This document shows positions 9,988 to 61,893 of a DNA stretch of 64,000 nt, piece by piece. Below the pieces are notes generated by a model that searched no databases, was not told where the DNA came from, and saw only the letters and a list, made by a program, of their open reading frames with translations. This DNA comes from Ruditapes philippinarum. Lineage: Eukaryota. The stretch lies in NCBI RefSeq assembly GCF_026571515.1, contig NW_026861420.1, positions 1 through 64,000 of the forward strand. The letters run 5' to 3'. Numbering within the stretch: position 1 is the first letter of the stretch; the number at the start of each line of letters is the position of its first letter. Made by a program: the position numbers and the translations under genes.

Positions 9988-10043
9988 TATATATATACTT
10001 ATATATAATATATATATATATATATATATTATATATTATATAT

Positions 10044-10076
<33 letters not shown>
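9988..10076. repeat. (TA)n microsatellite, imperfect
   Basis: Run of alternating TA with a few interruptions. Confidence 0.95.
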
Positions 10077-22979: not shown

Positions 22980-23230
22980 TTAAAGGTCCATTTTGCTTAG
23001 GAGTTCTGTTATTTTAATTTCTCAAAAGTCTTTTCATTTTTGGTAACCTTTTATAGTTTCTAACAAGTTACTCGTTGGCTACAATGTTATTACCTAAATC
23101 ATCTTTTGCTTCTGTTGCTTTTTGGAAATAAGTACATTTATAGTAATTTAGTATTTTGTATTGAAGTCAAAATACTACTTTGTTAGTGGAAAGAAGTAAC
23201 ACTTAATGACAAATAATTTCACATACATAT
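22980..23230 (+). repeat. Dispersed AT-rich repeat family (possibly Kolobok-type non-autonomous transposon)
   Basis: Shared core (ttttgtat..aagtcaaaatactactttgtt; gtaacctt..tagtttc). Related copies at ~2410-2640 (+), ~44180-44390 (-), ~49045-49260 (+) and ~52480-52690 (-). Several copies begin TTAA-AGG. Confidence 0.5.
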
Positions 23231-29260: not shown

Positions 29261-31872
29261 TTATAACATTCTGTCACACTCTTCGTCGCCAAGAGAAGGT
29301 TTAAATGTCGGTTTGAGTGCCCCATTAGCAGCATACAGTCCATTAGCCTGTTCCTTGTCATTGGATATATTCATCTCATAAACAGTGTTGAAATTCTTAT
29401 TATTTTCCCGTCTGTCTCGACGTCTATGGCTTAACAGAGGCAGAAACATAAGAAAAGATGCCACCGTCATACATATGCCCGAGAGATAAAAAGAAAAAGT
29501 GTACTTTCCCGTGATGGTGAGTAGGACCCCTACAAGTCAAATAAAAATATTTTGTTAGAAATTGTAACAAAATAGCTCAAAAAGGAAGCCCCTAAACGAC
29601 TTGACTCGATTCGAAGAAGTGGTTGACGGTGGTGATAATTGCAAGCTTCCATCCGAGCCTCCTGGCACGGACTTAAGCAAAATTCAACACTTTAAAAATG
29701 GAATGGTAAAAGTTTGAATTTATAAACTTCCGCTGCATATGTATCCATACGGCGGTAATCATTAAGCATTCAATGGATCACGTTCATGCCATTTCATACA
29801 CGACTTGTAAATAAATACTATTGATGTGTGCTTACTTTATTTGTATAAATTTTTCATGACGGAAAATCAAAAACAATGCTGTCTGTTTTTAGAGCTCTTT
29901 ATCTGCTCTTTATGAAATTTGAAGTTACAATATAATTATGTATTTACTACTTCGTTTGATATATTTAAAGAAACAATTTTATGGCGCATCTGAATTATGA
30001 CTTACAATACAATGGTTTTATCCATGTATTGGTGATGTTTGTAACCGTAAACGCGGTATATTGCAACTCGTACACAAAGGAACAAGGGTTTAATATATAC
30101 CTGCCAATGGACCTCCGATAAGATTTCCAGCCGCTTTAAATGGAAGTGATAATCCAACGCCATCAGCGAACCTGTCGTATCCCACTATTTTAAAGATGAC
30201 AGCCTGGAGTAGTGCTCCAGTAACAGAGTAGAAAAATCCAACAAGTCCCGATAGTGTTAGCATCCCTGTCTCAGTCAGTAATACTGGAATAAGAAATATA
30301 CACACTCCTGTTGCCGTAAGGGAGAACGTATATAATGTAGTTTCGTCCAATCTTGGATGTTGGCCTAATAAACTGTATACAATTTTCCCCACAAACGTAG
30401 TTACACCAAACACCATCAACACAGTTCCAAACGTCTGTTCAGTAAACCCAACTTCTTTTGAGTAAGATGGCAAATGCAAAATGAAAATACCTAAACTTAA
30501 ATTAGTAAATATATTACTTGAACAAAATGATACAAAAGATAATTTTCTAAACAAAGATAAATTTACATTTTCTTTCTTTTTAACTGTATTAGATTGTATT
30601 TCTTTAACTTCATTAATCATTGATACTTTTCCTGACTTCAGTGGAAACATGGCAGTAGAACATGTGCAAAGATTAAAAGACAACGCCCCTAAAATGAAGA
30701 GCATTCCTCTCCAACTGTAGTTTTCCTGCAAATTGTTCATTAGTTGTGTATAAACAATAAGTCCTATATTATGTCCCGTCGATGCTATCCCTGTTGCTAT
30801 GGTCTTGTATTTGTCAAAGTATATATTCATCACAGCCATGCAAGCTATATAGTTTAAACCCAGACCGAAACCTGGAAAATATAAAATGTCATACAAAATA
30901 TTTACACAACTATATGAGACCTCTCCATTTTTATAATCGCATGCCAATCATTCGTGAGTGTGAATTGTCGCACCAAAGTTATCTTTTACCTTTTCATTTA
31001 TCGGCCTTCGTAAAATAAATAGAAAATTAAAATTGATATGCCAAAAAGTTTTGAAGTTTAGAACGACAAACGGGAAAAAGTCGTGTTGTTGCGATATTTG
31101 AATATTCGCGCGGTAACAAATAATAGTAGCAGAAATATGTTATACAATTTGTAGTATAATTGTTCAGCTGATCTGAATATCCGGGTCTTAAAATAAGAAA
31201 TAAGATGTGATACACATATAATACCTGTGAGTAACCCATGAGTGAAGAACAGATATTCAATACTTTCAGCAAAGAATCCGAGAATTAATCCTGCTGCTGC
31301 CATGATACCACCAATAAAAGCACACTTCCGACATCCAAATCTATTTGTGATAACACTCCCAAAAGGACCTAAAAAGGAATAAGTTTGTGTATAATTAAAA
31401 ACGAATAGCCAATTGTTTGAATAAAGATGTACAAATAGACTTACATTGCATTTTATTTGTTCCTGTCGTTTATTTTCGTCAATATTGACGGTCATAAGAG
31501 AATTTCCTAGCTAAACTGATTGAGAAGGACCTCAGTTACCGTTGTTTTTTTTTTGTATTATTTCCGGCAAAACGGGTATTTGATTCGATACAATCATATA
31601 GAATATGGTGAACTGGCCGACGAGATTTGACCAAAAATGTATTGAAATTGGCTAAAAGAACAAGTAAACATAATCTTACATGCAAAATACCACATTGTCA
31701 TCGGTAGAGAGCACAGCCATGAGATTACCACGGGGTCGGAATTAAGCGCTTCTTTAAAAATAACATAGAATATTCCGCTTGAAAATATAACACCACCTAG
31801 AATTGTCTGACAGCATATTACACTCAATAATATGCACCAAGCCCATCCTCCATCCTTTCGTATGGCTATCAT
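29261..31872 (-). CDS. Monocarboxylate transporter (SLC16/MCT family, MFS), 4 exons, ~458 aa
   Basis: Exons (-): 31680-31872 (DGGWAW family motif), 31225-31368 (NRFGCR), 30101-30871 (YFDKYKTIATGIASTG, YSWRG, GGPLAG), 29261-29529. GT-AG, all phase 1; 1377 nt. The start codon is less certain. Confidence 0.88.
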
Positions 31873-32989
31873 TGTTCACAATACAAAGTTCCTTTTAAAC
31901 TATAAAGTACAACTTTCTGGTATCCAAAATTCCTTCTCTTTATTTACATCTAGTTATATTGAAATAATTTTTTATCCTTTGTTAAATCTTATTTTTTTTC
32001 CTGCTTCATTTCAAAGGGTATGTAACAAGTGTCGGGGAATTTCTCCATTATTATGTAATTATACATTTTATAAATAAGTGTCCTTGTCGGAATATTACAA
32101 TCATGGTATATTTGAATGTCTCTAAACAAATAAAATGTACTTAGTGCATCAGATAGCGATTAAAGCGACTTAAGAATGTACTAGTACCTCATCCATGTGG
32201 TAAATTTACAGCTGATATCAATTACATACAAATATAGTTTGCCGTGGCTATTGTAGTTTAATAAGATGAAGAAGACAATGAACTCATGGTTTTGTTTTTC
32301 TTTTTCCTTTGTATGATGTTATGATAATATTGTTATACATGTAATTCAACACTATTGAGCCCACATGACCAGCCCACGTGGCCAAGATGTAGATATTGAT
32401 GATATATGCTAATCTGTTGCTTTCTCAACACTGATGCCTTAAAATAAATAACAAAGATTTTTTTTATTCCATTTTCATGGCTGGGTTTAAGTCACACCGA
32501 CACAGTAAAATGTAATTTGGCGACTTTCTAGCTTGGCTGTCAGAGAAGGACAGCAGGTGCTCCCTCCCTGCATTATATGATATCACAATCAAGCATCTTA
32601 GAAGAACAGTCTAAAGGAATCCAAAGTACCTGGCAGGATATGAACCGCCAGCGGGGAAGGCAAGGGCAAGAAAATCGTTAATCATCTTAATTACTTACTA
32701 TGTAAAATGAGTTCAACTGCCTTTTGTTTTTTAAAATGTCAAAGATATATGTGCGTTTTCTTTATGTCCAGTTCAATTAAATACAATTAAAGGACATACC
32801 CCATTTTAGTGATACCTATTTAGGTACAATCGATTACCATATAAAACAGAAAATGGAAATTAACAACTGAAAGTATACCGGATTTTGATGCAGTACTTAA
32901 TACTGCAATCGTTTACATTCGGACATTGATGGTTTAGTGATATGAATGATATTGAAGCCGGTGCACGAGTGCAGGAGAGATCTTTCATC

Positions 32990-34072
32990 TTTATTGTGCC
33001 CCCATGTTAGTGGCGGGCATTTAGATTTACCCTTGTCCGTCCGTCCGTCCGTTCACTTTTGTGTCGCACGTAACTCAAAAAGTATTTGACCTAGAGTCAT
33101 GAAACTTTACAGGAATGTTGATCGGCATGTGTAGTTGTGCACCTGGGTATTTTCGTCTAGATATTTTTAGTATTTTCAGAGTTATTGCCCTTGACTTAGT
33201 AAAATTTTGCAATTTTCAACTTGTGTCGCATGTAACTCAAAAAGTATTTGACCTAAAGTCATGAAACTTTACATGAATGTTGATCAGCATGTGTTGTTGT
33301 GCACCTGGGTATTTTCGTCTGGATATTTTTAGTATTTTCAGAGTTATTGCCCTTGACTTAGTAAAATTTTGCAATTTTCAACTTGTGTCGCATGTAACTC
33401 AAAAATATTTGACCTAGAGTCATGAAACTTTACAGGAATGTTGATCAGCATGTGTAGTTGTGCACCTGGGTATTTTCGTGTGGATATTTTTAGTATTTTC
33501 AGAATTATTGCCCTTGACTTAGTAAAATTTTGCAATTTTCAACTTGTGTCGCACGTAACTCAAAAGGTATTTGACCTAGTGTCATGAAACTTTACAGGAA
33601 TGTTGATCAGCATGTGTAGTTGTGCACCTGGGTATTTTCGTCTGGATATTTTTAGTATTTTCAGAGTTATTGCCCTTGACTTAGTAAAATTTTGCAATTT
33701 TCAACATGTGTCGCACGTAACTTAAAAAGTATTTGACCTAGAGTCATGTAACTTTACAGGAATATTGATCAGCATGTGCAGTTGTGCACCAGGTATTTTC
33801 GTCTGGATTTATTTAGAATTTTTAGAGTTATTGCCCTTCACTTAGAAAATTTTTGCAATTTTCAACTTGTGTCGCAAGTTACTCAAAAAGGATTTGACAT
33901 AGTCATTAAACCTTATGGGCAGGTTGCTCAGCATATTTAGATTTGCACCTGGGGTTTCGCTTGTGGATTTATCCAGTATTTGTAGAGTTATTTCCCTTGA
34001 CTTAGTAAAAAGATTGACAGAACAGTGGCGCGGTGGGGGCACCCGTGTCCTATGGACACATTTCTAGTTTTT
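32990..34072 (+). mobile_element. Helentron-associated non-autonomous element (HINE) carrying a satellite array
   Basis: T-rich ends; sub-terminal inverted repeat gtgccccca (32996-33004) / tgggggcac (34034-34042); (GTCC)n microsatellite at ~33035-33052; 3' hairpin gtgtcc-tat-ggacac (34045-34059) followed by ctagttttt. This is the known architecture of bivalve HINEs. Confidence 0.85.
33061..34010 (+). repeat. ~5.9 x 161-162-bp satellite-like tandem repeat
   Basis: gtgtcgca starts units at 33061, 33223, 33385, 33546, 33708 and 33869. The last unit is the most diverged. Confidence 0.95.
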
Positions 34073-34888
34073 ATCTCATCACACTTAGTGTACTATTTTA
34101 ACCTTTAAATTTGTATAATTATATATCAGCTCTTTAAAGAGAATTTAATAACGACCGCTTCAAGGTGACAAATAGCGTAGTCACCATTCAACATTTTAAT
34201 TAGTTTAATGTGGTATGTAGATTATTATATCTTTACTGTATATCGGCGTTTACCTTTGTATTATCGCATGGTTTGGAACTTTTCCTTTGTTCTTACTAAC
34301 CCATTATACTCAGTACGCTTCAATGAGCATTTGAAAACTGTATTGATATATAACAGTACAGTTTTTTCATTGATTCATATAGGAAAAAATCTGGACTGTT
34401 ATGTAATAGTTACCGTACGAGGAATAGGTCTGCATAGTATTTACAGACCCGGGTGGCGATTTGAAGAACGAGAGAGCGTAGCTATCTTACCTACATGCTC
34501 TTTTGTTTTTCTATCCATACATCAGTTTTTAACTCAGTATTTATTAATATTACTCACAAGAAACAAATTATTTATGTACTTTATCATGTTTGAGAAAGCA
34601 TCCCAAAGTCAAGCAAAGATACCATCCGCTACGCTCTTGTAATTCATTCGTTCACAAATCAGGGGATATTTGAATATTATCGTGATTTTCGTGGGGTTTC
34701 ATTATGTATAACAAGGTCAGGTAATGTACTTGTTGAGTTTAGTCACAGAAAATGAAAACAGAACTTGTCGAGTAGGGAAAGGTAAGATCATTGTTTTGAT
34801 ATATGGATACATAACATATTAATAATATAAACAAATATTGAGGTAGATAAAAGTGTTTACTAATCATAAAAACGGAACAATAATATAA

Positions 34889-37110
34889 TTTCAACGCAAT
34901 ACTGGTATATTACAAAGTGACACGTTAAACATATATTATAATCACAATGGTCAATTAATGCTTTTACCTATACTAATTTCTACATATCCCCTGTATAATA
35001 AATACTCGTACATAAGATATATATGGAAATCAGTATGCGTTGTAGAAATGTTTTCAATCAATACAACAATTATCCGTTGTATAAACATGATATTATGTTA
35101 TTCAATGGAAAAAAGGTTCATTTTTGTTAAAGTAAGTTTATAATGACATATCAGTACTAAACACTAATTTGAGAAAAGAACAATTAAAATCAGTGAACAT
35201 TTTATTTATTTATTTATTTATTTTTGCAATTCCGTTATATACCAATATATGCTATTTTGAGCAAATTTAAACAGAATAATATTTTGCAGTTTATAAATTA
35301 CGCAGTATTGTTAACTAAGACATAAATAATTCGTGTATAAAAGTGACATGTTTTTATAATTGTTACACACCTTGTTTTTTGATATATCATTAATTGTGCA
35401 GAGCATTTTCATACCACAAGTTCACATGCAAAGTATTAATTTGGATTTAATACCAATAAAGTAAAGGTCATATTCTTCTATTAAGTTTCTAACAAAAATC
35501 TGATAAATACTGTTTAAACAGCATGACATGTATTTTAACTAATATTTTATATTTATATAAAAACTACAGATGCAATAAAAATGATCATACCTTTTTATAG
35601 ATGTCCTTTTTTATACAGCTAACGCCGTTTTTATCTTAAATCAAATTATGCTGACACAATACCAAATGATTCTACAACCTTAAAACGATATGTCCGGTAT
35701 TTGAATACTACAATATGCACTTTCCACATGCTAGTAATATTAACGTATAGAGTTATTATAAACCTTTTTATACACAATATGTCAGTTCTGACCTATTAAC
35801 TACAAGGTTGAAATAAATCTAGATAGACGTGTTTGTATAGACAAGACTGTCCTACCCCTTTTAACCTTTCAGTTAGTAACTTAAAACTGAAACATGATAC
35901 ATTGTTCATTGCTCGTACATAAAGTGTATCCGAAATCTTATATACTTATTCAATTAATATACACTTTATCCCTTGGATACCTTTTGCCTTGAATGAATAA
36001 ATCTTTTCTAACTTATTTAAGATAAAAAAAAACAATAAATCAATTATTTGAAAGTATTTCATTAACATATTTTATTTCTTAGAATATATAATATACATGT
36101 TACAGTTTACAATCTATACAAAGCATTACAAATAACCTCTCAAGACATGTTTAGAATGGAAAACAAAGTCTTTTTAATCATGACTTAACGTAAAGTGGTG
36201 TAAGTAAAATATAATGTATTTGATATAACGTTTCATCGTTAAAATATGATTAGATCTAAATTATAAGTTGGCTTGTTCTTTCTTTTTCATTACAACAAAT
36301 AGTGCCGAAAACACTATATTGTATGTTGTTTATCTTAATAATATGATTGGATTCATGTTTTTTTTTTATCTAGAATCAGCTTTCAAATGGTATGGTCAAG
36401 CAGTGAGCGTTAAAGCTTGAATGCCCTCAATTGAATATTGTTCTCCGTCAACCTGTTTGAAGTGGAACTTCTGCAACAAGTTTGCAAATATCAGAAACAA
36501 CTCCATCCTTGCCAAAGGTTCTCCGATACACAATCTGGGTCCTGCAAGAATAGATATTTCCTGAGAGATGGAAGCGTCTGACAAAAAACTACATCTCCGA
36601 TTTAGCTCACAGGATTATATAAAAGTTAATTTAATTTTATGTTTGATCAACTTGTTATTTCAGCGACAATGTTCATGGTTATTTGAAATTATTAAGGCCT
36701 TACTAGGAGAGAATGACAACTAAAGAACCATTTTGTATGAGTATCCTTTGATACTTAGTTGTGATATGTATCTCAAATGACTAACACAGCACATTTCTGA
36801 TTATACTGTCATTTCTTATACTATAAGTTAAAGCAAATGGAATGTATGCCAATCCTAGCACTTATTAATGACATACATATTTTCATTTCCAGCATCTTCA
36901 TTCTGTTATGATTTAGTCGGTAATCAAAAGACTAATGTTATACTAGTAGCTTTCAGAATAAGATTTGCTCGAGGTCGCTAATAGTTGTATATGTCAACAC
37001 AAACTCCTAAAACAATCGGTATAGAAATTGTGCCGAAAATAGGAGCGTAAATTCATTTTCTTTACAATAAATAAAAAAATAAAGACAACTAGGAATGTGA
37101 CTGTAGGACA
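34889..37110 (-). repeat. ~2.2-kb segmental duplicate of 44637-46913 (CYP last-intron end, last exon, 3'UTR and downstream DNA)
   Basis: Colinear high-identity match, e.g. gacacgttaaacat..atcacaatggtcaa at the left end and aatgtgac..taggaca at the right end. Confidence 0.92.
36366..36541 (-). pseudogene. Orphan duplicate of the CYP terminal exon (heme-Cys exon) with a nonsense mutation
   Basis: [26 protein letters not shown]... TTA(Leu)->TGA at 36396-36398; ancestral stop at 36366-36368. No upstream CYP exons between here and the SULT gene. Confidence 0.88.
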
Positions 37111-37394
37111 CGTATTATGTCCCAATTTGACAATAGTTCAGATCTTTTTATTTCTTACATCTATGCGTGTATGTCCCACTATTTTGCCATCTGGCCAATG
37201 TGACGAACTGATAGGTGCAAATTGATAAACACCTACGCGCGTACGTAAAGGAGATATAACAACACTCATATCTGTAAATGATTCGCACTAGGCCACACAA
37301 CTGCTGACATGACGCTCTTCAATACATCATGTGACATTAAATATATACTCGTTTATATTATGATTATATCATTTAAATTTGTCAACTTGCATTA

Positions 37395-38217
37395 ATATTT
37401 TAAAAAAGTGGGATACGACAGGTTCGCTGATGGCGTTTGGTTTATCTATTCCATTTAAAGCAATCGGAAATTTAATCGGGGGACCATTAGCAGGTACATT
37501 TAACTGTTGCTCCATCGTCGCCTTTTGCACGAGTTATATTTGTCTTTGTGAGATAGTGCACTTCAAAAAGGATAAAACATTTTCTGTCATTGATTATACT
37601 GCACTAATTTATCATGTCCCTTTATATTTTAATACAACACAAATCTTGCTGACGTTGTAGATTTTTTAAACTTTTAAAGTAAGAATTGAAAGAAGTAAAC
37701 TTTTTATATTATGCATGCACGACTATATGTGACTGGAGATGGAATGGGACAGAACTATTAAGAATGTATGTAAACTTGCGGTAACTGCCTTGCAACGAAA
37801 TATAACTGGCCGAGATTGGTAGTAATGAGCAAAACAATTTTGATGCAAGAGCATCCACGCGGCGATGAAGATAAGCCATTATCGCATGTTTTTAAAGTCA
37901 TAACAAATTACTTTTGTCTTTCAGGAGTTTTACTTACCATCACGGGGAAATACACTTTTACATTTTATCTCTCGGGGATATGCATGACAATTGCATCATT
38001 TCTAATGTTTCTGTCTCTGCTAAATCATAGACGTCAAAACAAATGGAAGAAGAACAGGAATTTTAATACTATTTATGAGATGAATGTATCTTATAGCAAG
38101 AAACATGTAAATGAAGATAAAGTTGCAGATAGAATGGATGTAACGATATGTAAAGACAACATTGATGCTAAAGAATGTATAAGAACATTGTTAGATAGTG
38201 GGAAGAATGATCTCTAG
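37395..38217 (+). pseudogene. 5'-truncated inverted MCT/SLC16 paralog (end of exon 3, intron, exon 4)
   Basis: 37395-37493 encodes KVGYDRFADGV/GLSIPFKAIGNLIGGPLAG with a 1-nt insertion. Donor gtacat at 37494, acceptor ttcag at 37924. Exon 37925-38217 (GVLLTITGKYTFTFYLSGICMT...) is homologous to 29261-29529. Confidence 0.87.
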
Positions 38218-40049
38218 GTAATCATTTACAGGGTGAAGTGATTGCGGTAAAACAAGGAGGAATTCAAGTTAGCTGTGATATATAAGTTTCACATTTTATG
38301 AGTAACCATAAATTAGTTCATATTGTAATGTTTATACATAAATGTATTTAATTTCAGAAACTAAAAGTTCCTTTCGCTTTCTTAAACTACGCAGACCGAT
38401 GCTGAAGGGTTTATTTTTATTGAACATACCCACCAAATGAGTCTTGTTTCTTCTCCTGGTAAACATGCATGGTTTCCCCGAAATCAAATTGTTCACTCGA
38501 CAATATTTTGAATAATTTAAAAACTTTTAAAGAAATTATTTATGAAATTCATTTTAATTATATTATAATTATTATTCACAAAAAACAACCATAATATAGT
38601 AGGTTATAGCTGACTCCATAAAATAGCTTTACGTGCATTATTTATTTTCTTGAGAATATTGAATATTTCAAACAGTTTCTAAAAATTAAGTTACTTTATA
38701 ATTATTTTTCACAAATACCAAGCAAATTATCAAACAGGTTGCATACACTCGAGATCTCCACCTTTTTCAATTTTTATACTGAAACCATAAAAGTGCCATG
38801 TGCAGCTTTAGAAAGTTGTCCCGTACTTAACACCAGTGATGCTCCAGCAGTCCGCCTTTTCCAAAAAAAGGCGTGCCAAGCATGTACAAACCGTTAATAA
38901 TTAATAAAGCAAATGATCAAAGATCCACTTGAATTGTGTTATTACTGTCATAGCTCGCACGCAACTTAAGACTGGAGAAAATATGAGCATAGTGGTACAA
39001 ACAGAGTGGAAATGTCGCTCAAGCGTTTCCATTGGCCGCCGCACTTATTCAAAGGTCCATTTTATAGATTGCAGTGGGGTTTGGGAACAGGTTTATCAGT
39101 GTTCAAAAACTGTATCAGAACATCCTTGTAGACAGAATAGTTACGAATCTATTAAGATGGCAACCATCATGTACCTGATATGACCAAAGGCAGAGGCTCT
39201 TAACTTTTCAAAAAATTATTGATCGATCCATCTAGTTGTTCCCAATTGGTGCATTGAAAATACCTCTACAAAACCCAATAACCCGCTCCCTGATTGTGTC
39301 ATCTTCAGGCTTGACTGCATATAAAAGCACTACAAAGCGGGTAGTAAAAATGTCTTTTAGCTGATATGATAAATCTTGATTGAGTTGGTTTCGGGAAATA
39401 ACTCTTCGTCCGCCTGCAGCGAAACCATATTAAAAGTATTGAAACACGTTAAAGTGAAAGCATCCTATAGACGGTTTTCTTTTCGATTCTAATGCAAGGC
39501 CACAGTAGTAAGAAATTCCTGGACATCTAAGTTTTATTTTTAATTTAAATTTAAGTTAAATTTATTTTTGCGAATTACAGAAGAGGTCGTGGTGGGGCTT
39601 AGAAGAGAACTAAATATGGACAAGCTGTAATGTTTCAATTCGTAGGGAGTTTTCCAGTGAGTGCTTCATCGAAAATGAAGTGAAACTGGATTTTAAAGAA
39701 AGCATAACATGACCGACTTCTTTTTACATTCATGTTTTATTAGAGGTTTTCAGAATAAGATTGAAAATTGTTTGTTATAGTGTCTACATCAATTAAAGTT
39801 TCTGGGTTCAAATAAAATACAACTTCCCCTTTCTAAGTTAATAGCTCTCTCTCACACACATTTCATTTTAATGTGTGTACGTGTGAGCGTGTGTACGCAT
39901 GAAAATTAACATCATATAAACAAATACATTTAATATTGTTATGTAAAAAAGTATAAACAAATATTTGTATAGCATTTATAAAAAATGATGTTCTAAAAAA
40001 GACTGAATTATAAAGTAAGTATAACAATGCATTTAATGTCTCAATGAAT

Positions 40050-43000
40050 TCAAGATCTTGGGCCTGAGTACTTAAATTCAAAGAGTTTAGAGTTTGCCAT
40101 CTCTTTGGTCCAAGTTTCATCAAACATTTCATTATCGGCACATGTAAACCAGTTCTTCCAATCACCAATTTCTCCTACAACATAATCAAAACAAAAATGG
40201 TTTAATAAAGAAAGTTTAATAAAACATAAATGTGCAGTTCTCTTCATGTTTTAGCTTTTTTATACTAGTACATGTTTTTTATATGCAGAACCAATCCTGA
40301 TGAATTTTCCTCGTAATGAAATAATAAAACCGTAAAATACGTGTTGTGAAAAATGTTCTGGTTACAGCAGGGCAAAAGAACAAAAGAAATTTCAAGCGAA
40401 TCGACGGTTATATTCTGCAGGTGTGCTGATTTAACATAGCGTGTGATACTCTACCGTCTTTTATTATTGGGTTTATTTTTCAATTTAAACACAGTCATAT
40501 TATGAGGCATTACTTAACTAATTATAAGTATAAACATTTTTGCATTAACAATACCAAACAATTGGAATGCAAGAATCTTTGTTTCGTTGCATTACTGAAT
40601 ACCAGTCAAAATTATTGATGAAACGTTGAAGGAACTGAAGTTCCTGCTGATACAAATGTACTAGACTTTCCTTTGTTCAATTTCAAATATGCCTTCAAAC
40701 TAGATCAAACTAGATCAGCCCGTGTAAAATAACATACATGAATTACTTAAATGATCTTGAACTAAAATACCTTTTCTAAAAAATCTGAAATTCTCACGAA
40801 ACATCTTATCAACAATATGTTTAGGTCCTTGAAACTTGTCACTTGCCATTTTGTCAAATCCACACGCATTCAGTATATCTTTTTGCAACTGCTTATCAAG
40901 TTCAATATCTAGAAAATTCAGTAATCTTTCAAGTTCGGCTTCACCATCCTAAAATGTAGAAGTTTCATTTAGGAGAAAGTTTAACAGTTGTGCTTTAGTT
41001 ATTTCAAGAAATGTTTTGTTGCCTTGAACATATTGTTATAATGAAACACGAGAGATAAAATAAGAGAAAACAATACCGATCTAAACCATTCAAGATACAT
41101 CTAATATTCTTTTGAATTTTCAAAAAGTACCCATATTAGATAAATGTAAAATTAACAGACTGAAATGCTTTGAAAACTTTTCGTCTCACATTTTCAAGCA
41201 AATATCGAGAATTATTACATATATACGAGTAGTAAACTTATTTCATATACAAATATTGTAACGATTGATAACGCAATTTACTTAAATTTAAGCTAAGTCG
41301 CAAGATATCGGGTTTGAAAAAAATTGCAAATGCGAAACATAAGCGTCTGTGTATTGAAAACAAATATAGTAAACATTACTAGTTTAAGATCCTCATAATA
41401 CATAAGGTGGATTGGAAAATCTTTTCCTTTAGTTATAACTTTTTCCCACTCCAGTAAATAATCTGTGTACTTTCCATACTCCACTGGAATATAAAAAAGA
41501 AGTAGATTTTCAATGAACACCGTAATATGACATTTTCGAGACACAGGACTTCATCTTATTAATAAAAAATATTGTATAGTGGTTATAAGCTATTCCTTTT
41601 ATTTTCCATATCTTAATATCAGATATACTTTTATTCAATTTATTCGGCAATTTACATTATGTTTCTTATTTTATCAAGCTTTAACTTTCTAATCAAACTT
41701 TAACTTTCTTAGGTGTTTATTTCTTTAAAGCAAAAAATAGTTATTCTTTTCCATCTTTATGCATTCCTCTAAAATAACTTATTTATATTTTTAACTAAAA
41801 CGATAATTATATTGCAGTTCTCAAATTTACAATCAGGCTATGCTTATGCCGGCCATGAGCAGGCTTAACTAAACTGAGTCTGAAACGATTTCAATTCTGT
41901 TTTTTCTCTATTTAGTTTCATGTAACTGTTGAAGAAAACATATGTGTACATTTTCCTTCCAAAAATATGGGAAGCCAGTCAGAAAATTTCCCATCATAGT
42001 CATAAGTTCGGAAGCCTTTCATATGGTTGTAGAACGAGACCGCTGTATCTTTAGGGTTTCGAACACATAAAATGGTCTTGGGTTTGGACAATGCTTTGTC
42101 TTTCGGAAGCAGTCTGGAAAGCAAGGAAAGTATACTAAATATAACAAGACTAAAACAAAAATCAATGAATTCTAGTGCTTGTTTTTTTATCTCAATAGAA
42201 TGCAATTTTCATAAGCAGTAGATAAGATGATAAACGACGTATGTGTCTTGGGTGAAAAGGTGTAAATATTGCATATGTAAATACCTTATATAACTTCCAG
42301 TTACAGGTCAAATCTTTCAGCTTTATTATAATTTAACGTTGAACTTAATTGACTTATTATAAATGCAAAATCATAATGTGTTTCTATGTGATAGCCTTGT
42401 TAGATAATATACTTGTATGAATACATCTGCGGATGTTTTTATATTTAAATTTTCACCATCTTTATGTTTAAATATTGAATTTTGCTTAAGACGGTGCAAG
42501 GGGTGGGCGTGGATGGTAGCTGGATAAATCAGAGTCTGCAGTATTTTCAATTTCGCTATTTTTGGCCGTTCTTTAGAAATTCATTTTTTTTATTTTAAAC
42601 AATCTAAACAAAACATTGTTTACTAAATAGCTTGTATACAGAATTTATTTTAGTTTGATTGTGTAGGAAGCTTTAAGCTTATAGACGCACTTTCGAATCC
42701 GTTCCTGGAACCAGCCAGTACTGAGCAATGAGTGTAAAGTTTCTTGCTCAAGGAAACAACGACTTGCCCCTGACGGGGATTGAACCCATACGGCTAGCGA
42801 TCATTAGATTACTAGACGCGTTAACCACTCGGCCATGTCGCCACTAATAGCTTGGTAAAACGCTCCTAAAAATGTGTCATGGTCTTTGTTACAAACATAC
42901 TGAAAAGCAACAACTTTCTAATAATTGCGTGTATTATAAATGTTACAATTTTATTTAAATCTCGGACAAACCTTGGCGGATAGTGGCTGTTAAGCACTCG

Positions 43001-43953
43001 AGGGGACGGAAGTTGATTGATCGCCGATTGTGGAACTATTTCAAGCATGCATCTTCCTTTTGTCATCTGGGTCAATTCTGCTTTCCTATTGTTGATCATA
43101 CTTAATATCTCGAATAACCAATGTGTGCCTGTTATTTCATAAGTGATAAAAAGGATATTGTTGTAATAAAGCAAACAAAATATATTGTATATTAAAAGAT
43201 AATAAAAGCATCATTTCAAATTAACAAAATTTTGGAAAATAATGTTTGAATGATAGGCTATACTTGGCGACATCTGGCGAGGGCGAAACGTCATGATAAA
43301 GTTTCATAGTGGATAAACAAAATCCCTGCATCATGTGTTGCAAGCCTAAACAAATCAACGTGTGCTCTGTCTTGCGGTTACAAGCTCTATACTACTTCGG
43401 GTCACTGTACCTTTCTATGTAGCTTTTATATTTGAACTTGAACCACTCTTACGATATCAATTAAATAGACATTGTGTATTCACTGTGTGTTCCATAGATA
43501 CAAGTATAAGTACACTATCATAACTTATGATATTTTGCTTTGTTTATTTATATATTATCGTTGTAATTTTTTTGTAATTTTCATTACTTAAATCCATTTA
43601 AAATATTTTATACATATAAAAGTAATGCATTTACTTCATTAATTTAGGAATCTCCTTAAAAAACTGTCAACACTTTTGGCATTAACAATAAACATATTCT
43701 TAATTTTAATAAAGAACTAACTGTTTCATAACTATAGTATCACACTGGTATATGATAAATAACTGATACCTGTCTTTTGGTAAGTGCACAGCAAAATATC
43801 ATCTGGTCTGAATTTAAACTCTGGCAGCATATCAAAAACTTGTTTCACTTCTTCTGGCGCGCCTTTCGGATCTGGGGTTATAAAACCGTCTCCAACATCG
43901 ACACCTACTTTCATTTTTACCCCACCCTTATCCTCTATAATAACACTGGTCAT
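40050..43953 (-). CDS. Cytosolic sulfotransferase (SULT1-like), 6 exons, 303 aa
   Basis: Exons (-): 43770-43953, 42972-43128, 41950-42113, 41380-41483, 40771-40948, 40050-40174; 912 nt, phases consistent. Motifs: 5'-PSB TYQKTGTHW, PRVLNSH, 3'-PB RNPKDTAVSFY, YEDLK, RKGEIGDWKNWFT. Confidence 0.93.
42635..42845 (-). mobile_element. tRNA-derived SINE in SULT intron 2
   Basis: Minus strand: A-box TGGCCGAGTGG, B-box GGTTCAATCCC, CORE-like ccttgagcaagaaacttta and an A-rich tail. Flanked by the direct repeat aatagcttg (42626-42634 and 42846-42854), a candidate TSD. Confidence 0.8.
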
Positions 43954-46132
43954 AGTGATTGTCTGTGAGTTTGAAACGAATAATTATATTCAGACAATAT
44001 AATAATATAATAATTGTAATCATGATATACATGTATGTACATTATGTTAAGATATAATTCTTTAAAAGCACATTATGCCTCAGAAACAAATAAAATTTAA
44101 CTTCTTTAGAAAGGGCAAAAATGATTTTTTAATGTTTAAATGATGGTTTTAGAGAATGGTAAGTGCTTGTTGCCTGAAGAAAGTAGAAATAAATGTGACA
44201 TTGTTTGTCATAAAAGTAGCAAAATGAAAACAAAGTAGTACTTTAACTTCCATACAAAATACTAATTCACTTTAACTATTCTTACTGCCCAAAAGCTTTA
44301 GGTGGAAAATATGGTTCAGGTAATTGGACAATGAGTAACTATTTGGATACTTTAAAAGTACACCAAAATTTGAAAGCTTTTGAGGAGTAAAAATAAAAGC
44401 ATTATAGGCATAATGGTCCTTAAAACTATATCAAGATACCGCAAAACATCCACAATAATAAAATTATATGAGGCTAGTTTTTCAGTACGCATTATGCTAT
44501 GAATAAAATTGAATAAAATGTAATATATGTTATTATGGTTTCTAAAATAAATTAAACAATAATGTACATACATGTATATTAATCGATAAAATGATCATTA
44601 AGACCCCTTTTCTGACGACTGTTCCAATATATATTGTTTCAAAGCAATACTTTTATATTACAAATCGACACGTTAAACATAGATTATAATCACAATGGTC
44701 AAAATGCTTTTACTTATACTAATTTCTATACACATCCCCTGTATATAATAAATACTCGTACATTAGATATATGGAAATGAGTATGCGTTGTAGATAATAA
44801 TTATATGTTTTCAATCAATACAACAATTATCCGTAGTATAAACATGCTATTATGTTATTCAATAGTAAAAATGTTCATGTTTGTTAAATTGGGATAAACA
44901 TGATATATCAGATCTAAAAAACTAATTTGAGTAAACAACAAATAAAACCAGTGAACATTTGTGCTTTGCAATTCCGTTATATAGCAATATAAGCTATTTT
45001 GAGCATGTATTATAACAGAATAATACTTTGCAGTTTACAAAGCATGTAGTATTGTTATCATAGACATAAATAATTTGTGTAAAAAAGTAATATGTTTTAT
45101 AATTGATATACGCCTTGTTTTTGATATATCATTAATTATGCAGAGCATTTTCATACCATCAGTTCAACATGCAAGGTATAATTTGGATTTAATACCAATA
45201 AAGTAAAGGTCATATTCTTCTATTAAGTTTCTAACAAAAATCTGATAAATACTGTGTTTAAACAGCATAACATGTAATATTTTATATTTATATAAAAACT
45301 ACAGATGCAATAAAAATGACCATACCTTTATATAGGTGTCCTTTTTTATTCACCTATTGTATACACATTCAACTTTAAACGCCGTTTTTATCTTAAATCA
45401 AATTATGCTGACACAACACCCGATGATTCTACAACCTTAAAACGATATGTCCGGTATTTGAATACTACAATATGCACTTTCCACATGCTAGTAATATTAA
45501 CGTATAGAGTTATTATAAACCTTTTTATACACAATCTGTCAGTTCTGACCTATTAACTACAAGGTTGAAATAAATCTAGGTAGACGTGTTTGTATAGACA
45601 GGACTGTCCTTCCTTTTAACCTTTCAGTTAGTCACATGACACATTGTTCATTGCTCGAACATAAAGTGTATGTATATTTATACCGAAATCTTATATACTT
45701 ATTCTTTTTACTATACACTTTATACCTTGAATACTTTTTGCCTTGAATGAATAAATCTTTTCTAACTCATTTAAGATAAAAACAAACAATGAAACAATTA
45801 TTTGAAAATATTTCATTAACATATTTTATTTCTTAGTATATATAATATACATGTTACAGTTTACAATCTATACAAAGAATTACAAATATCCTTTCAAGAC
45901 ATGTTTAGAATGGAAAACAAAGTCTTATTAGTCATGACTTAACGTAAAGTGGTGTAAGTAAAATATAATGTATAATCAGCAATTTATAGAACGTTTCATC
46001 GTTAAAATATGATTAGATCTAAATTATAAGTAGGCTTATTCGTTCTTTTTCATTGCAACAAATAGTGACGAAAGCACAATATTGTAAGTTGTTTATCTTA
46101 ATAATATGATTGGATTCATTGTTTGTATTGTT

Positions 46133-49100
46133 TCATCTGGAAACAGCTTTCAAATGGTATGGTAAAGCAGTGAGCGTTAAAGCTTGAATGCCCTCCATTG
46201 AGTACTCTTCTCCATCAACTTGTTTGAACTGGAACTTCTGTAGCAAATTTGAAAATATCAGAAACAACTCCATCCTTGCCAAAGGTTCTCCGATACACAA
46301 TCTGGGTCCTGCAAGAATAGATATTTCCTGAGATGTGAAAGCGTCTGACAAAAAACTACATCTCCGATTTAACTCACACGATTATATAAAGGTTTATTTA
46401 ATTCTATGTTTGATCAACTTGTTCTTTTAGCGACAATGTTCATGGTTACTTGAAATTATTAAGGCCTTACTAGAAGAGAATGGCAAATAAAAAAACTGTA
46501 AGTGGATTCGTATAATTTGGCATTTATTCTCGAGTATTAACTATGCCAAACCAAAACACATTTTAGATTTTACTCTATTTTCTATGCTGTATGATAAAGC
46601 AAATTCAAATTTGGCTAAATATACGCATGAAATGCACTCATAAATAACATACATGTTTGCATTTCAAGCACCTTCGTTCTTGAGTGATTTAATTGGAATT
46701 TGAAAGACTAATTTTATAGTAAACGGATCAGGAATAGCTCAAAAGTTACATTCAAAAGTTCATATTTGTGTTTACATTATTTTCTCTTTTTTTTTTTAAA
46801 AACATATTCATAAAACAATGGTAAACACATTCCGTCGGATATACAATCGTTAATTCATTTTTTAAATAAATTAAAACAAATTTAAACACAACTTGAAATG
46901 TGACCATAGGACAGGGATGCCTCCGAATCCCACTGTTTTGTCAGTCCACTGACAGACAGTGTAAGATTAAGCCAGGATAAATATAGTTATTGTATATAGA
47001 ACAATGTGTTTTATTACCCCTCACTTTTTTCGTAATGTTAATTTCCCATAGGCCTTTGGGAGTTATTCTTACTGTTAAGTGTACCACGTGACTAAGAATT
47101 TTTTACTGTTACATAAGTAACATTATTTGTTAACAGTATAAAATCTGGTCACGTGGTCTATTTTCTAAACAAGTAAAATGGTTTCCTGCGGGGATCATTT
47201 TTTAATGATATAAAGATATTTCTTTTATTTATTTCCAACATTGTTTGGGGGATAAATAAACGTTTTACCAGGAATAAAGTTGACAATAATCGATAAATAT
47301 AGAAGAAGGTCTTTGGAAACCGACGACCGTTGAAGTCCTAAGACCGGAGAAGGTCGACCGAAAACAATTATTTCTTTTATAGAAAATGATTTAATACCAT
47401 TTTCTGAATAATTCCGAGCAAAAAAAAATAAAGTAAACACACAAGTTTACGCAGAAAATATCTCTATTTAGTATGGCAGATGCCACTACAAATATTTTTT
47501 TTGTAGATTTTCAGTAAAACAATTTATTGTTTGTAAAATTTGAGATAGATATTAAAGAAACATTGATAGTTTTCAAACACATCATTCAAGTTTTTCCACC
47601 TTAAACGGTAAACTAATTATAGAAAATAAGAAATATCCGTAATAGTTTTTTGTTGTTAATTAGGTGTAACTCGGACTTATTCCCTAGAGGTAAATCCGTA
47701 GCGTACCGGCAAACGGTATTTAGCTATGTTTTCGAAAAGGTCAATTAACCAATCGTGTACGGTTTACAGGTCACATGCTCCTCCATGTACCGAAAACAGG
47801 TCACGTGCTCCTCCATGCCCCAAAAGTTAAACGCGTACCAATACCCTGTGGTCTACGAAATAAAATGGCCGCCATTTTTCTCTCGATTCATTCTTATTTT
47901 CGACGATAGGGCCTAAGCCATCACCAAAGTAACTATGACTCTCATAAAATTTAGTTTTTTTGCACCCTAGAGTTCTTTTCGTGTATAAAGTATCTTTTTG
48001 TTGAATAGTCAAAAAGTAAACATCCGTTTTCAACGGAAGTAAGTGTAATGTGAATAATTTTGTGTCAAACTGGAACATGCAGACGATTAAAGCATACAAC
48101 AAAGGATTGTTTAACAATTTTAATTTTAACGGACAGACATCTGTAGGATATCATCGTTATTTTGTAAATGCACTTTGTCTTTGCGAAGAATATTCTGGAC
48201 ACAGAAGGATCAGATTTCACAGATCATAACCTTATAAATGGGTTAGTGTTTTGTTTTCTAAATAAAACACAGCTTATTGTATGTTTATGACTGGTAGATA
48301 TCATGACTTGCTTAAAGAATAAAAGAAAAACTGCTCTTTAAGTAGGCCTACAGTACACTTAAAACTTGCAAGGTAAGGACAGTTGAGTTATTGCTACTCT
48401 TGGTTTATTTTTGTTACAGTTAGATTTAGTTTACAAATTCAGATCATCACAGTATTTGTTCGGGGTAATAAAATAAATAACACGTGGGTTTGTGTGTAAC
48501 AGTAAAAATATCATCCCTCGTAAAAATACTGTTACCCTCGGCTACGCCTCGGATAACAGTATTTTCTTCGGGATGATATTTTTACTGTATCCCACAAACC
48601 CACGTGTTATTTATATAATATTCAATTAAACAATTAAACATTAAATATTCGAATAACTCACCGTCTCCGAAAGGAACCAGTCCGTCTTTCCTCAATACAT
48701 TCCCGTCACTGTCTAGAAACCTTTCTGGCATGAACTTCTCCGGGTCAGGCCAGTATTTAGTATCAATATGTGCTGAATACAAATTAGCAATTATAATGGC
48801 GTCTTTAGGTATGTCGTAGCCAAGTAATGTAGCATCTTGTTTAGCAACATGAGGCAGTGAAAATGTTACTGTAAAACAGACAAAGTAATTACTTTACCAA
48901 TGTAAATAGAAAGATTGTGTATTTACGAGCTCGTATAGTAAAACGAAATACTTTACTAATGAAAATTGAGAGATTGTTTATGTAAATAGGATAAATAAAT
49001 ACTTTACTTATAAACATTAAGAGAAAAGATAGGTAAATATATAGTTAAAGGCCCAATAAGCCGAAACATTGCTGTTATTTCTAGTTTCAAAAGCCTTTTT

Positions 49101-52100
49101 TTTTGAGTGTCCTATTATAATTTCCAAACATGTTCTCATTTACCATATATAAAAGCACTGTTTTACTTCCTTTGTATTTTGGCAAGTAGTACACTTATAA
49201 TAATAAAGTGTTTTGTATGGAAGTCAAATTAAAATTTTGTTGATATCATTTTGATACCCTTATCAAAAGTCAGTTTCCATTCAGCGCTATTTTCGTCAGG
49301 TGATAAGCTTCATAATTGTTCTACGTGGTAAATTATTACAAATTATAACACGCATGTTTGCTTTTTCAACAGAAAGAAAATCAAGATAATTGGGATAAAT
49401 AGTAAGTTACTTATGAAAAAGACCGTGCATGTACATGCAAAAGAGATATTTAACTTGTACAAATATATGCATGTAGTTAACTTTGTCTAGGAGGTGAATA
49501 TGGTGTATTTACGTGTATTGGAAATTCGTTGCAGCTCAAGCAATGTGGCTTGTGTGTAAGGCATCTGGTTTCTATCAGACAGTGACACTGGCCGCCCGGA
49601 TCCAACCACCTAAAATAACATTGTAAATTAGGCATTATGTGATATTTTATGTGAACCAATTATCTTGTTTTTTAACAACACATATTTGTGTTTTCTCAGT
49701 TACTTTTTAAAAAAAATACATTCACTTAGATGATATTTAAAATCCTTGTTTATATATCAAAGTGAGGCATTTGTTCTTTGTTCAACTAACTTCTTACTCT
49801 AACCATAATCCTAAAAATTATCCTAAACTTACCATAATGCGCTCCTAGCCCTAAACTAACCAAAATGTCAATACAATCTTAGGCCCCGTACCTTAGAATT
49901 ATTCTACGAGGAAAGGATACAATTCCGAGGTTCACTTTTTCTACCTCACAATGTAGGTTAACCCTCACTTTGCATGTGAAAAGTAAACAAACTCACCTCA
50001 CAATGTAGGTTAACAAACGCACACACATACATATTTCTAAATGGGGCATTAAATCCTGTAGTAAAAGAATTAATGATATATAAAAAAGAGATCATAACAA
50101 TGTTTACCTTTGATATTTCGTTAAAACATCTGCTCTGTACATCCGGGTACATAATCATATAAAGCAACGCCCAGTCGAGACTGGTTCCCGTGGTCTCTCC
50201 GCCAGCCAGGAACAAGTCAACTATTATCTTATATACATTCGCCTCTGGAATTAAAATTAATTAGTGTATTAACGCTCCCCTTTAAAACGAAATTCGAAAA
50301 AAATGACGAGGCATAGCAGATTCATTATTATAGTGTTCTCTATTTTTAATAATTATTTACTTGTTAATATTTTTATGACTATCTTAATTTAATTATACAA
50401 TCCATGAGTTACTTGAGAATGTCTATTGTTTGTTTAAGGGATGAACAATACTAGTACATGTAGTATTTACAACAGCTGAAGACTAAGCATGCTCCATATG
50501 CAGGTATCATTTCATACTTCTAGGGAAAGGGCTTAATCTTAAGCTTATTCTCGCAGTTTTCGTTGGAAATAGTTTCAGTTATTATTAGAAAAATACTTTA
50601 TTATTAGAATATTATTTGTTTTTTTTTTAATATAGTTCTTAATTTTCTATCGACAATTTACCAGTAAAAAGCTCAGGTTCCGACTCGTCCTTAGATGCTT
50701 TTATGTACAGATCAATAAAATCTCGTATATTCTCTGGATCAAACGTGACTTTGTGATCTTCTATCGTCTCAGACAGATAAGACTTCACACGTTCTATCGC
50801 CGCTGTTCTGTTTCTTATCAACTGTAAAATAGTAACGATTTGTTCTCGTAAAAATTGCCATTGGCTACAACAATAAAATACATGTAGTTTATTTTTTCAA
50901 AGACGTAGGAAGCATGTTTTGACCTTTCCAATTTTTAGCAGTGAAAGATTTAGCCCACGCCATTTCTATTTTCTGCTAGGTCAATTGATTACAAACAGTA
51001 TCTAAACCAGGACAACCGGTGCAGTGATTATGTATAATCTAGATTAAGAAATTAGATAGCTAGTCAGCAAATTTGCATAAAACTGTAAACACTGGAAAGG
51101 TCAAAATAGATCATTCAAAAGAACATCGCGACATTTTTTCTCCTTTTCGGGCAATTCAAATGACTGATTTTTTCTTATTGTGTGATGTACTGTTATTACT
51201 TAACATATTATTGGCGTTCATTATCATTGAAGTAAAATAATTTCTATCAGTCGGATGTAACAAAATAATAAACGGATACAATACCTCTTTTCCAGAAGGC
51301 CATGTGCGAGTTATAGGAAAGAAGTTTTCCTTTGCAAATGGTGCATTTAGTTTGAAAATTCCGTCCAAGACCTCTGTCAACTCAGAGAATTTTGAGTCAC
51401 TATACTCAAACCTTGAAAATAAGAATAATGCATAATAGTGTGCACTGAGGTCTAGAATTCCAAAATATAAAATTTGAATTTCTTACATAGATCTACTGGT
51501 GCATTTAAAAAAGATAAATATGTAAAGGATAATTAGGGAATTTACTTTAAAAATAAATTAAAAAATGCATTTTTGTGCCTATTCTTAGCCCGACTGGAGT
51601 GAAAAGCGTTGCAATGCTTTTTAGAATCGTGTTATTGTTTTACAATTAAAATAATTATTCTGGAATAATTTTGAGCGAATACTCTTAAATTCTGCACATA
51701 AATTCTTAAATTCTTGGTCTATAACTTCATCAAATGGAATATTAAGATGTAAACATTATCTCCAGTCCTGTCATGTCAAAAAATCCAGAGGAGGCCCTTG
51801 AATTATGGGTAAAAAGTGTTGTTTTATTATTTTACTTTCTTTGTTTCATTATTATTATTATTTCAAATATTATTTTCCCAAACTTACTTAAATTAGTTAA
51901 TTAATTAAACCCAAACTTTATCTTGAAATTGATCAATTTCCGCCATCTTGTTTTACGGAATCAAATGGGGGACAATATAGCTCTGTGAATGAGGTATGCA
52001 GAAAAATGTGTACGCACCTTGCTCCGAACATTACACTACAAATGATATTTGTTGCAGCCGACAGAAGGTAGGGTTTCATTCGGATAGGGGAATTGTTTGC

Positions 52101-53531
52101 ATTCTTCAAAATCGACGCCAATACCAAGATCTCTTCTCGTATACGCTCTTCTAACGTCAATTTTCCGACACCAAAATCACGCAACGCTTGTAACGTAAAA
52201 CGACGTAACGTCTTCCATCGATGGCCACTGTTGTAAGTTAATCCTGAATATTCAATGTGATATATTGTAGTAAAATAAAGCAAAATAAAAAGAAAAGTAT
52301 TTAGATAAGGATCGAGATGCTTGCGTTAATAATTTTTAATATCATAATATTATAGTTTAATGGTACATTATGACTCAAGTACGAGTAATTTTTTCCCTCC
52401 TTAAGAAAGGACAAACAAAAGTTTTATAATGTTTAAATAATGGTTAGGGAGAATACTAGACGTTTATCACATGATGAAAGTAGCTCTGAATGTGAAATGA
52501 TTTGTCATATAAGTAGCAAATTGTAAACAAAGTAGTATTTTGACTTGCATTTAAAATGCTAAATTACTATTACTAACTGCCAAAACAAAAAACGCCATAA
52601 TTCAGGTATAAGGCCAATAAGTAACCTTTTTGAAACTATAAAACGGGACACTAGAAATAAAAAGTTGACAAAATGTCTCTTAAAGATTGATATTGTTCCA
52701 ATACAATAGTAAAATTCAATCTTAAGAGACAATAATTTCTATGTAAGTGGTCTTTATTTGAGGATTGTCTTAAAACACCGGGCTAACTGTATGTTTACCC
52801 GTTCCTTTAGAAACTCCAATCAGAGGTGCAAACAGTTGAGGTCTGTCCGTGAATATATCTGCCTTCTTTGTGAATGCTTCATGAATCGCGTCAAATCCGT
52901 TTAACATTACTATAAGCGTTGACCCACAATACAATCTGTTAAAAAAATAGAATGTTCTTAATAAATTAAACTATTTTGTTGTTGTTTTTCATTTAGTTAT
53001 GTTTTCATTATTATTGTTTAATTATTATTTTTATTTCTTTTTCTATTTTGGGTATTGAAAAAGACGCATTATTACTTCGAAATAAATATGCTTAAACGTA
53101 GTGAATGTTAAAATTAGCAATTTGGAAATGTCAATCTATTTTGTTATATAAACAATGCATGTTTACCAAAGTGCGTAAATGCGCGAGCATACGCTCCTAC
53201 ATGTTTATATATCATGTTCTCAAAATAAACCCGTGGAAATACTTGAAATTAGAAACGCTGCAGCATTAGCGTATATACATGTACAAAGCAGACCGTCATT
53301 TTAAGCTGGGCACTTAATTATTGAAATAAAATACCTGTATACGTTTCCATATTTTTCAGCAAGTTGCGTGAATTTCTTGTATCCTTGAGGGTCTTTCTGA
53401 AAAAGTCGTATATTTCCAATAACTGGCCACGCAAAAGGTCCCGGTGGCAATGATTTTGACCTCACGTGATTGAACACGAGCCAGCTTATTAATAAAACTA
53501 GTAATAAAAGAGTTAAAGTTCCTTCCAACAT
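46133..53531 (-). CDS. Cytochrome P450, clan 2 (CYP2-like), 9 exons, 487 aa
   Basis: Exons (-): 53335-53531 (TM anchor, PPGP), 52799-52935, 52018-52243 (WKTLRRF), 51285-51411, 50662-50821, 50108-50244 (I-helix AGGETT), 49513-49609 (ELQR), 48662-48868 (PERF), 46133-46308. The heme motif FGDGPRLCIG spans the last junction; 1464 nt in frame. Confidence 0.95.
46990..48620. mobile_element. ~1.6-kb non-autonomous DNA element (possibly Crypton-type) in CYP intron 8
   Basis: 12-bp inverted repeat ttttattacccc (47009-47020) / ggggtaataaaa (48462-48473); long terminal hairpin 48473-48614 with loop ctcggctacgcctcg; internal 30-bp tandem duplication at ~47767-47820. No transposase ORF. Confidence 0.55.
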
Positions 53532-55325: not shown

Positions 55326-55329
55326 AATA

Positions 55330-61800: not shown

Positions 61801-61893
61801 CTAAATAAAATTCAGCTACTGGAACTTAGTTTTTCATGTATCGTCCTCAATGATTTTAATATTACAACTTTCAGCTTGAAATGGTAATCAGTC

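Follow-up and report, generated by a model that had tools for sequence, protein, structure and literature searches.

Probably incidental adjacency of cytochrome P450, sulfotransferase, and SLC16 transporter genes in the clam Ruditapes philippinarum

A window of 64,000 nucleotides from Ruditapes philippinarum (NCBI RefSeq assembly GCF_026571515.1, contig NW_026861420.1, positions 1 to 64,000) carries three intact, spliced minus-strand genes in the following order: a clan-2 cytochrome P450 (CYP), a cytosolic sulfotransferase (SULT), and a transporter of the SLC16 (monocarboxylate transporter, MCT) family. We put a probability of about two-thirds (0.68) on the trio being incidental neighbors that derive from a single ancestral bivalve chromosome, as opposed to a detoxification pathway inherited as a unit. 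Local rearrangement and duplication would have joined genes from three large families located on that ancestral chromosome, with the CYP, SULT, and SLC16 each likely working independently. The gene models, the family motifs, the anatomy of the relics, and the common chromosome in relatives are directly demonstrated; this history, the functional independence, and the substrates suggested below are what we infer from the comparisons. Incidental adjacency was favored because in Mactra antiquata the CYP and SLC16 relatives lay far apart and the SULTs on another chromosome, because the three modes of evolution and the ages of two relic gene copies differed, because the families are large (a CYP-SULT neighbor pair is expected 0.2 to 0.9 times per genome), and because SLC16 was absent from the accessible text of a review of conjugate transport and a scaffold enzyme from the scanned reading frames.

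Three intact genes on one strand

Gene models built by hand from the sequence and then checked by script had GT-AG boundaries at all introns and 0 internal stops, and each matched letter for letter a RefSeq protein, all three of which share a single 128,888-bp scaffold:

46133..53531, minus strand: clan-2 cytochrome P450, 487 aa, 9 exons; identical to XP_060554557.1
53531-53335, 52935-52799, 52243-52018, 51411-51285, 50821-50662, minus strand: CYP exons 1-5 (hand model)
50244-50108, 49609-49513, 48868-48662, 46308-46133, minus strand: CYP exons 6-9 (hand model)
40050..43953, minus strand: cytosolic sulfotransferase (SULT), 303 aa, 6 coding exons; identical to XP_060554558.1
43953-43770, 43128-42972, 42113-41950, 41483-41380, 40948-40771, 40174-40050, minus strand: SULT coding exons (hand model)
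29261..31872, minus strand: SLC16 (MCT13-like) transporter of the major facilitator superfamily (MFS), 458 aa, 4 coding exons; identical to XP_060554564.1
31872-31680, 31368-31225, 30871-30101, 29529-29261, minus strand: SLC16 coding exons (hand model)

A preliminary description of the locus had proposed three intact minus-strand genes in the order P450, SULT, MCT; the stop-free models bear this out, and matches in Pfam and PDB agree with all three family assignments. The gap of ~2.2 kb that it gave between the CYP stop and the SULT start measured 2,180 bp, and 8,178 bp separate the SULT stop from the SLC16 start. At least three unrelated genes are thus adjacent, as in a nonhomologous metabolic gene cluster. 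GC content in the window was 24 to 38%.

Gene order in Mactra

Gene order in other bivalves was deduced from record lengths, locus tags, and accession order. In M. antiquata, the CYP orthologue (ACF0H5_016961; KAL4223490.1) shared a 40.9-Mb chromosome with the one SLC16 relative that turned up among proteins of at least 449 aa (ACF0H5_017446; KAL4223987.1). The two were separated by 485 tags (497 accessions), with tag order taken as positional because tags and accessions move in step. Two Mactra SULTs that were looked up (41 to 45% identity) were on a different chromosome from the CYP. The trio had earlier been read as an oxidize-conjugate-export module, a proposal that gained no positive support: the 485 tags between CYP and SLC16 in Mactra, the differing evolutionary modes, and the lack of SLC16 in the transport review all speak against it. 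A selected cluster of this kind, recently assembled in venerid clams for release of a sulfated metabolite or clearance of a dietary toxin, would account for an order and orientation that match pathway order with no unrelated gene in between. So would a variant in which an ancient single-copy P450, present across bivalves and with a fixed endogenous substrate, gathered a SULT and an SLC16 directly downstream, such that one cell would hydroxylate, sulfate, and export a hormone-like or defensive molecule. The distance between CYP and SLC16 in Mactra counts against such clusters, and we hold each of the two versions to be very unlikely.

Three genes, three modes of evolution

Identity to the closest Mercenaria protein was 90% for the CYP, 57 to 59% for the SULT, and 65 to 68% for the SLC16, and only the latter two were multicopy; the three genes thus differ in mode of evolution.

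The CYP contained a full P450 domain (Pfam p450, 408.8 bits, positions 1 to 461 of 462). Heme-thiolate FxxGxRxCxG, ExxR, PERF, and the I-helix Thr are the defining P450 motifs; all were found, as was the PPGP hinge, and the model includes [18 protein letters not shown] and AGGETT (I-helix). A PDB search placed the protein nearest CYP2 (CYP2B4, 1e-99; CYP1A1, 5e-76; CYP17, 9e-71; CYP21, 2e-49), with CYP2B and CYP2C as the best solved relatives, and it is predicted to be a heme monooxygenase anchored in the endoplasmic reticulum. It shares with vertebrate CYP2B4, 2B6, 2C9, 2D6, and 2R1 the usual motifs, a 9-exon structure, and, by sequence (best PDB E value, 1e-99), the clan-2 fold; unlike the vertebrate CYP2 P450s, it belongs to a bivalve orthogroup and is apparently single copy and slow evolving. 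The RefSeq label “CYP2J4-like” is an automatic annotation, and members of the orthogroup bear assorted automatic names (2J4, 2U1, 2K, 2J6, and 2F5-like).

Identity of the CYP was 90% to Mercenaria, 79% to Mactra, 72% to Dreissena, 70% to Sinanodonta, 70% to Mytilus, and 66 to 68% to oysters and pearl oyster, and outside this orthogroup the next matches fell to 41%. The search gave 17 hits from 97 candidates, with each of 10 named bivalves represented by 1 copy; the tree followed bivalve groups, with imparidentians, Sinanodonta, and pteriomorphs apart. Within this limited search, the gene thus appears to be an unusually conserved and apparently single-copy bivalve clan-2 P450. Biosynthesis-type CYPs are described as slowly evolving and rarely duplicated (PMC4076195). 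Because the clam gene matches this pattern, its product more likely acts on a fixed lipophilic compound of endogenous origin than on varied xenobiotics in general detoxification. The Mactra CYP (P0016, ACF0H5_016961) is 809 aa long and was considered as a CYP-SULT fusion; this was rejected, as a tandem-repeat insertion inflates the CYP and the protein has no sulfotransferase domain. A search for DNA around CYP orthologues, with half of the metagenome collection scanned, returned 5 loci there (1.4 to 4.7 kb) with nonorthologous matches of 32 to 51%, and none in the prokaryote and viral collections.

The SULT matched Pfam Sulfotransfer_1 at 182.8 bits. Alignment of an allelic protein (P0028) to SULT1B1 (E value, 2e-39) located the 5'-phosphosulfate-binding (5'-PSB) loop, the 3'-phosphate-binding (3'-PB) motif, the catalytic His, and a C-terminal RKGxxGDWK, and a membrane anchor was absent. 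These motifs serve in catalysis and in binding of 3'-phosphoadenosine-5'-phosphosulfate (PAPS), and the enzyme is predicted to move sulfonate from PAPS onto phenolic or alcohol groups. PAPS-binding motifs, catalytic His, and RKGxxGDWKNxF are shared with human SULT1B1, 1C2, and 1E1 and with the expanded SULTs of Chlamys farreri. In contrast to SULT1-type enzymes, the clam protein has TYQKTGT for TYPKSGT and N for K two residues before the catalytic His, and it falls in a venerid/myid clade with low identity to every solved structure. Its two relatives in Mercenaria were 57% and 59% identical, and it is a member of a fast-turnover, multicopy clade. An exon search had yielded 1 protein from 5 candidates; in the full search with P0028, relatives were collapsed at 50% identity and 16 of 150 hits were checked by accession, and the tree used 139 of 152 rows, those outside 190 to 380 aa being dropped.

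For the SLC16 protein, 12 of 13 PDB hits were animal MCT1, MCT2, MCT8, or MCT10 (E values, 1e-41 to 3e-29), the 13th being a bacterial lactate transporter (3e-8). With proton-coupled MCT1 and MCT2 and with MCT8 and MCT10, facilitators for aromatic amino acids and thyroid hormone, it shares the MFS fold and a DGGW.W motif, of the DGG(W/F)GW type, before transmembrane helix 1 (TM1). Proton coupling in the MCT1-4 group involves Lys38 and the Asp309/Arg313 pair (PMC13265630). At these sites the clam protein has F30, T271, and K275: unlike MCT1, it lacks the Lys and the Asp and so is not MCT1-4-like; as in MCT1, the site in TM8 that meets the carboxylate keeps a basic residue (K275 for R313). Its TM8 sequence GVTTFVGK resembles GVTSGVGR of MCT10. 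The replacements at F30 and T271, the retained K275, and the MCT10-like TM8 together underlie our prediction of a proton-uncoupled facilitator for a small anion or amino-acid-like solute. Mercenaria has seven MCT13-like relatives on one chromosome, the best at 65 to 68% identity, and the window gene is one among many tandem-prone MCT13-like paralogues. In the accessible part of a review on transport of glucuronide and sulfate conjugates (PMC8793843), the terms SLC16, MCT, and monocarboxylate occurred 0 times, a further point against a three-gene export cluster. The window allele (29231-29263) ends 10 residues short of two 468-aa alleles from 1.7-kb Logan contigs, and the remaining codons are in frame past the stop.

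Relics and spacers among the genes

The space between and around the three genes holds the following:

34878..36945, minus strand: CYP relic, comprising the intron 8 end, last exon, and ~1.5 kb of 3' flank; parent at 44625-46721 (self-BLAST)
37399..38217, plus strand: SLC16 relic, inverted and 5'-truncated, with the exon 3 end (frameshifted) and exon 4
33059..34010, no strand: 162-bp tandem satellite, 5.9 copies, between the CYP relic and the SLC16 start (TRF)
43954..46132, minus strand: CYP-SULT spacer with an AATAAA, a dispersed repeat (44052-44424), and an acceptor-like AG

Relic copies of CYP and MCT had been put forward as the only gene-like sequences between the genes. Both are real, and Pfam results for 138 stop-to-stop frames, each at least 45 aa, from four intergenic stretches agree: the 66 frames between the three genes gave the CYP relic only, plus one subthreshold DUF match. 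By self-BLAST, the CYP relic was 85% identical to its parent over 2.1 kb, gaps included; its last exon (36542-36366) differed at 15 of 177 bases, one of which gives a premature stop, and its flank had 105 mismatches in a 1,547-column alignment (~7%). The SLC16 relic was nearer to the window SLC16 than it was to either Mercenaria co-orthologue, with dN of 0.06 and dS of 0.82 over 36 codons of exon 4, and is best explained as an old paralogue of the Ruditapes lineage, maintained by selection for a long time and later broken. The relics had also been taken as a sign that the linkage is old. That does not hold, in that the SLC16 relic is old (dS ~0.8), the CYP relic younger (dS ~0.27, ~7% in the flank), and the two were not copied together: they diverge from their truncated 5' ends, and this opposed orientation and the different ages imply separate local events, which also counts against a three-gene cluster. 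The relics show long-running SLC16 duplication here and leave the CYP-SLC16 linkage undated. The 162-bp satellite is high copy in the genome, with read depth in the thousands-fold.

The short CYP-SULT spacer bears on whether these two genes form a functional pair, in which the conserved CYP would act first, by hydroxylation of a lipid or steroid-like molecule of endogenous origin, and the SULT second, by sulfation of what the CYP yields, under shared regulation and with the SLC16 as a passenger. In phase I-II metabolism, the SULT step usually comes after the P450 step. That order, the common orientation, and the 2,180-bp spacing would suit such a pair; an AATAAA ~300 bases past the CYP stop, a signal judging from sequence alone, would give the CYP its own end. 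The SULT also evolves much faster than the CYP (57 to 59% versus 90% identity to Mercenaria), and the Mactra SULTs looked up sit on another chromosome. We regard a functional pair as possible but unlikely.

Nine bases ahead of the SULT ATG is an acceptor-like AG (43954-43970), its role read from the letters only; it may serve an upstream noncoding exon or splicing that reads through from the CYP. The dispersed repeat in the spacer belongs to a family with members also at 22980-23293 and in CYP intron 2 (52347-52664), at 68 to 74% identity.

Read coverage and expression

Four raw-read runs were mapped on positions 29001 to 49000. Runs X21 and X22 carry an RNA-Seq label and are likely Hi-C DNA, because introns were evenly covered and loose ends fell at GATC. 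In these DNA-like runs, depth was a similar 0- to 5-fold over unique sequence in the 20-kb stretch, also across the relics, and the relics hold a stop, a frameshift, and 7 to 20% divergence, versus 2 to 3% between alleles of these proteins. Both observations make it exceedingly unlikely that the adjacency or the relics are an assembly artifact, for instance from wrongly merged haplotypes on a small scaffold, even though the scaffold is just 128,888 bp, the first 12 kb of the window look homopolymer rich and of low quality by eye, and another SLC16 paralogue occurs on two scaffolds as near-identical copies. A 20-base-bridged joint from 45802 to 38520, likely from a repeat, was seen in X21 and X22 (21 and 31 reads); 15 of 461 read joints were viewed, all at repeats.

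The RNA-like runs X23 and X24 reached an exon depth of at most ~1-fold from few reads, with bins of 0.76 and 1.19 for the CYP last exon, 0.15 and 0.57 for the SULT last exon, and 0 and 0 for the large SLC16 exon. From very few reads, then, low depth in the CYP and SULT and none in the SLC16 would fit a CYP-SULT pair, and zero depth of the SLC16 exon in both runs, where the CYP had some, is a weak point against a three-gene cluster. The pattern is too sparse for co-expression and counts weakly against it. Spliced SULT and SLC16 transcripts are implied by full-length allelic proteins on Logan contigs of 1.1 to 1.8 kb, that of the SULT being a 301-aa protein on a 1,065-nt contig.

Chance expectation

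Expectations were computed under a random model with family sizes borrowed from other bivalves: 141 to 156 CYPs in Pinna (PMC13093298), 26 to 83 SULTs and 28,602 genes (PMC5700196), and 54 to 75 SLC16 genes, 28 of 70 being on one oyster chromosome (PMC11939762, PMC9679248). An exact CYP-SULT-SLC16 trio in any order would be expected 0.0007 to 0.0071 times per genome, a rarity that favors a three-gene cluster. A CYP-SULT neighbor pair would be expected 0.18 to 0.91 times, which counts against reading function into the pair, and any phase I, phase II, and transporter trio 0.23 to 0.44 times, with class sizes assumed. The exact trio is thus uncommon; such a pattern, chosen after the fact from a very large scan, is not, and the uneven spread of SLC16 genes (28 of 70 on one oyster chromosome) raises the local odds. 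Chance adjacency of large families, a caveat of the preliminary description, is the reading that we judge the more likely.

Points against incidental adjacency

Several points weigh against incidental adjacency. The Mactra comparison depends on the tags being in positional order, which was deduced; the Mactra SLC16 (P0005), found in a search limited by protein size, groups with the window gene (87/86) with two alternative placements unrejected (p-AU, 0.21 and 0.16); and a closer Mactra SULT could be masked by the clustering at 50% identity. Under the random model, no more than 0.0002 to 0.0018 exact co-oriented trios would be expected per genome. CYP, SULT, and SLC16 families were co-up-regulated, at the family level, in scallop digestive gland upon toxin exposure (PMC6410316), and pathway “bundles” in animals may spread across large regions (PMC12833800). 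In Mercenaria, the CYP, both closest SULTs, and the seven MCT13-like SLC16s are on one 82,356,740-bp chromosome, and in Mya the nearest clade SULT and an MCT13-like protein are on one of 82,781,202 bp.

Such chromosome sharing is expected from chromosome-level conservation, and a cluster predicts the same; it implies that the CYP, SULT, and SLC16 lineages belonged to one ancestral linkage group. The Mercenaria chromosome accordingly also speaks for the three-gene cluster, as all closest relatives are on it, and for the CYP-SULT pair, as both closest SULTs accompany the CYP. The RefSeq XP numbers of the Mercenaria proteins (CYP, 053376355; SULTs, 053376105 and 053376110; SLC16, 053374911) were tried as a stand-in for gene distance and rejected. 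RefSeq protein numbering is not known to be positional, and the numbers are uninformative because the neighboring Ruditapes SULT and SLC16 are themselves 6 numbers apart. The scallop family-level rise fits common tissue expression without linkage, and the narrow chance figure keeps a cluster alive as a reading while the broad one does not require it.

Comparison with known animal clusters

Animals do have clusters of unrelated metabolic genes, as in the molluscan bur-ox (PMC11869996) and the sponge oro (PMC12833800), and this precedent favors a three-gene cluster here. As in these systems, unrelated enzyme genes lie close together in an animal genome, and bur-ox also includes a P450, although a bacteria-like one for which a globular protein is predicted (PMC11869996). 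In contrast, bur-ox and oro have core scaffold or validated enzymes and linkage conserved across producers, whereas the clam locus offers adjacency only: no polyketide synthase, nonribosomal peptide synthetase, terpene synthase, or other signature scaffold enzyme was present in the 27 plus 138 frames scanned, which cover bases 1-27000 only in part and exclude the half of the 128.9-kb scaffold that lies outside the window. The absence of such an enzyme from these frames argues against a three-gene cluster. No description of a CYP-SULT-SLC16 trio was found in the literature covered, which left out most subscription papers and the supplement of PMC12833800 with its cluster scan of seven mollusc genomes.

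Other features of the window

A single-exon, Cys-rich hydrophobic ORF without a Pfam match occurs in two copies of 76% nucleotide identity (25514-26224 and 14199-14865), one open for 236 aa and the other broken by frameshifts. A multiexon minus-strand gene at 17537-22348 encodes an EGF domain along with several vWA domains and contains a 68-bp tandem array (19343-19628). A single-exon Mab-21 family ORF (cGAS-like receptor type; 549 aa stop to stop) occupies 61888-63537, and fragments of a decayed DDE_1 transposase and a LINE-type reverse transcriptase lie upstream of the CYP at 54734-57733. Positions 1-12500 are homopolymer rich, contain no credible ORFs, and by eye resemble lower-quality consensus.

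Implications

If the adjacency is incidental, this is an ordinary locus and a caution that the abundance of CYP, SULT, and SLC genes in bivalves can yield pathway-looking trios without selection. If the genes are functionally linked, the locus would join the small number of animal clusters in which metabolic genes are unrelated, and it would hint at the substrate of an orphan P450. Were the three-gene cluster true, it would have been caught in midassembly, with an SLC16 exporting a sulfate conjugate, a role not found in the accessible part of the transport review (PMC8793843). Either way, the slow-evolving, apparently single-copy clan-2 CYP is a good target in itself: its orthogroup spans clams, freshwater mussels, mussels, and oysters and likely serves core bivalve lipid or hormone metabolism.

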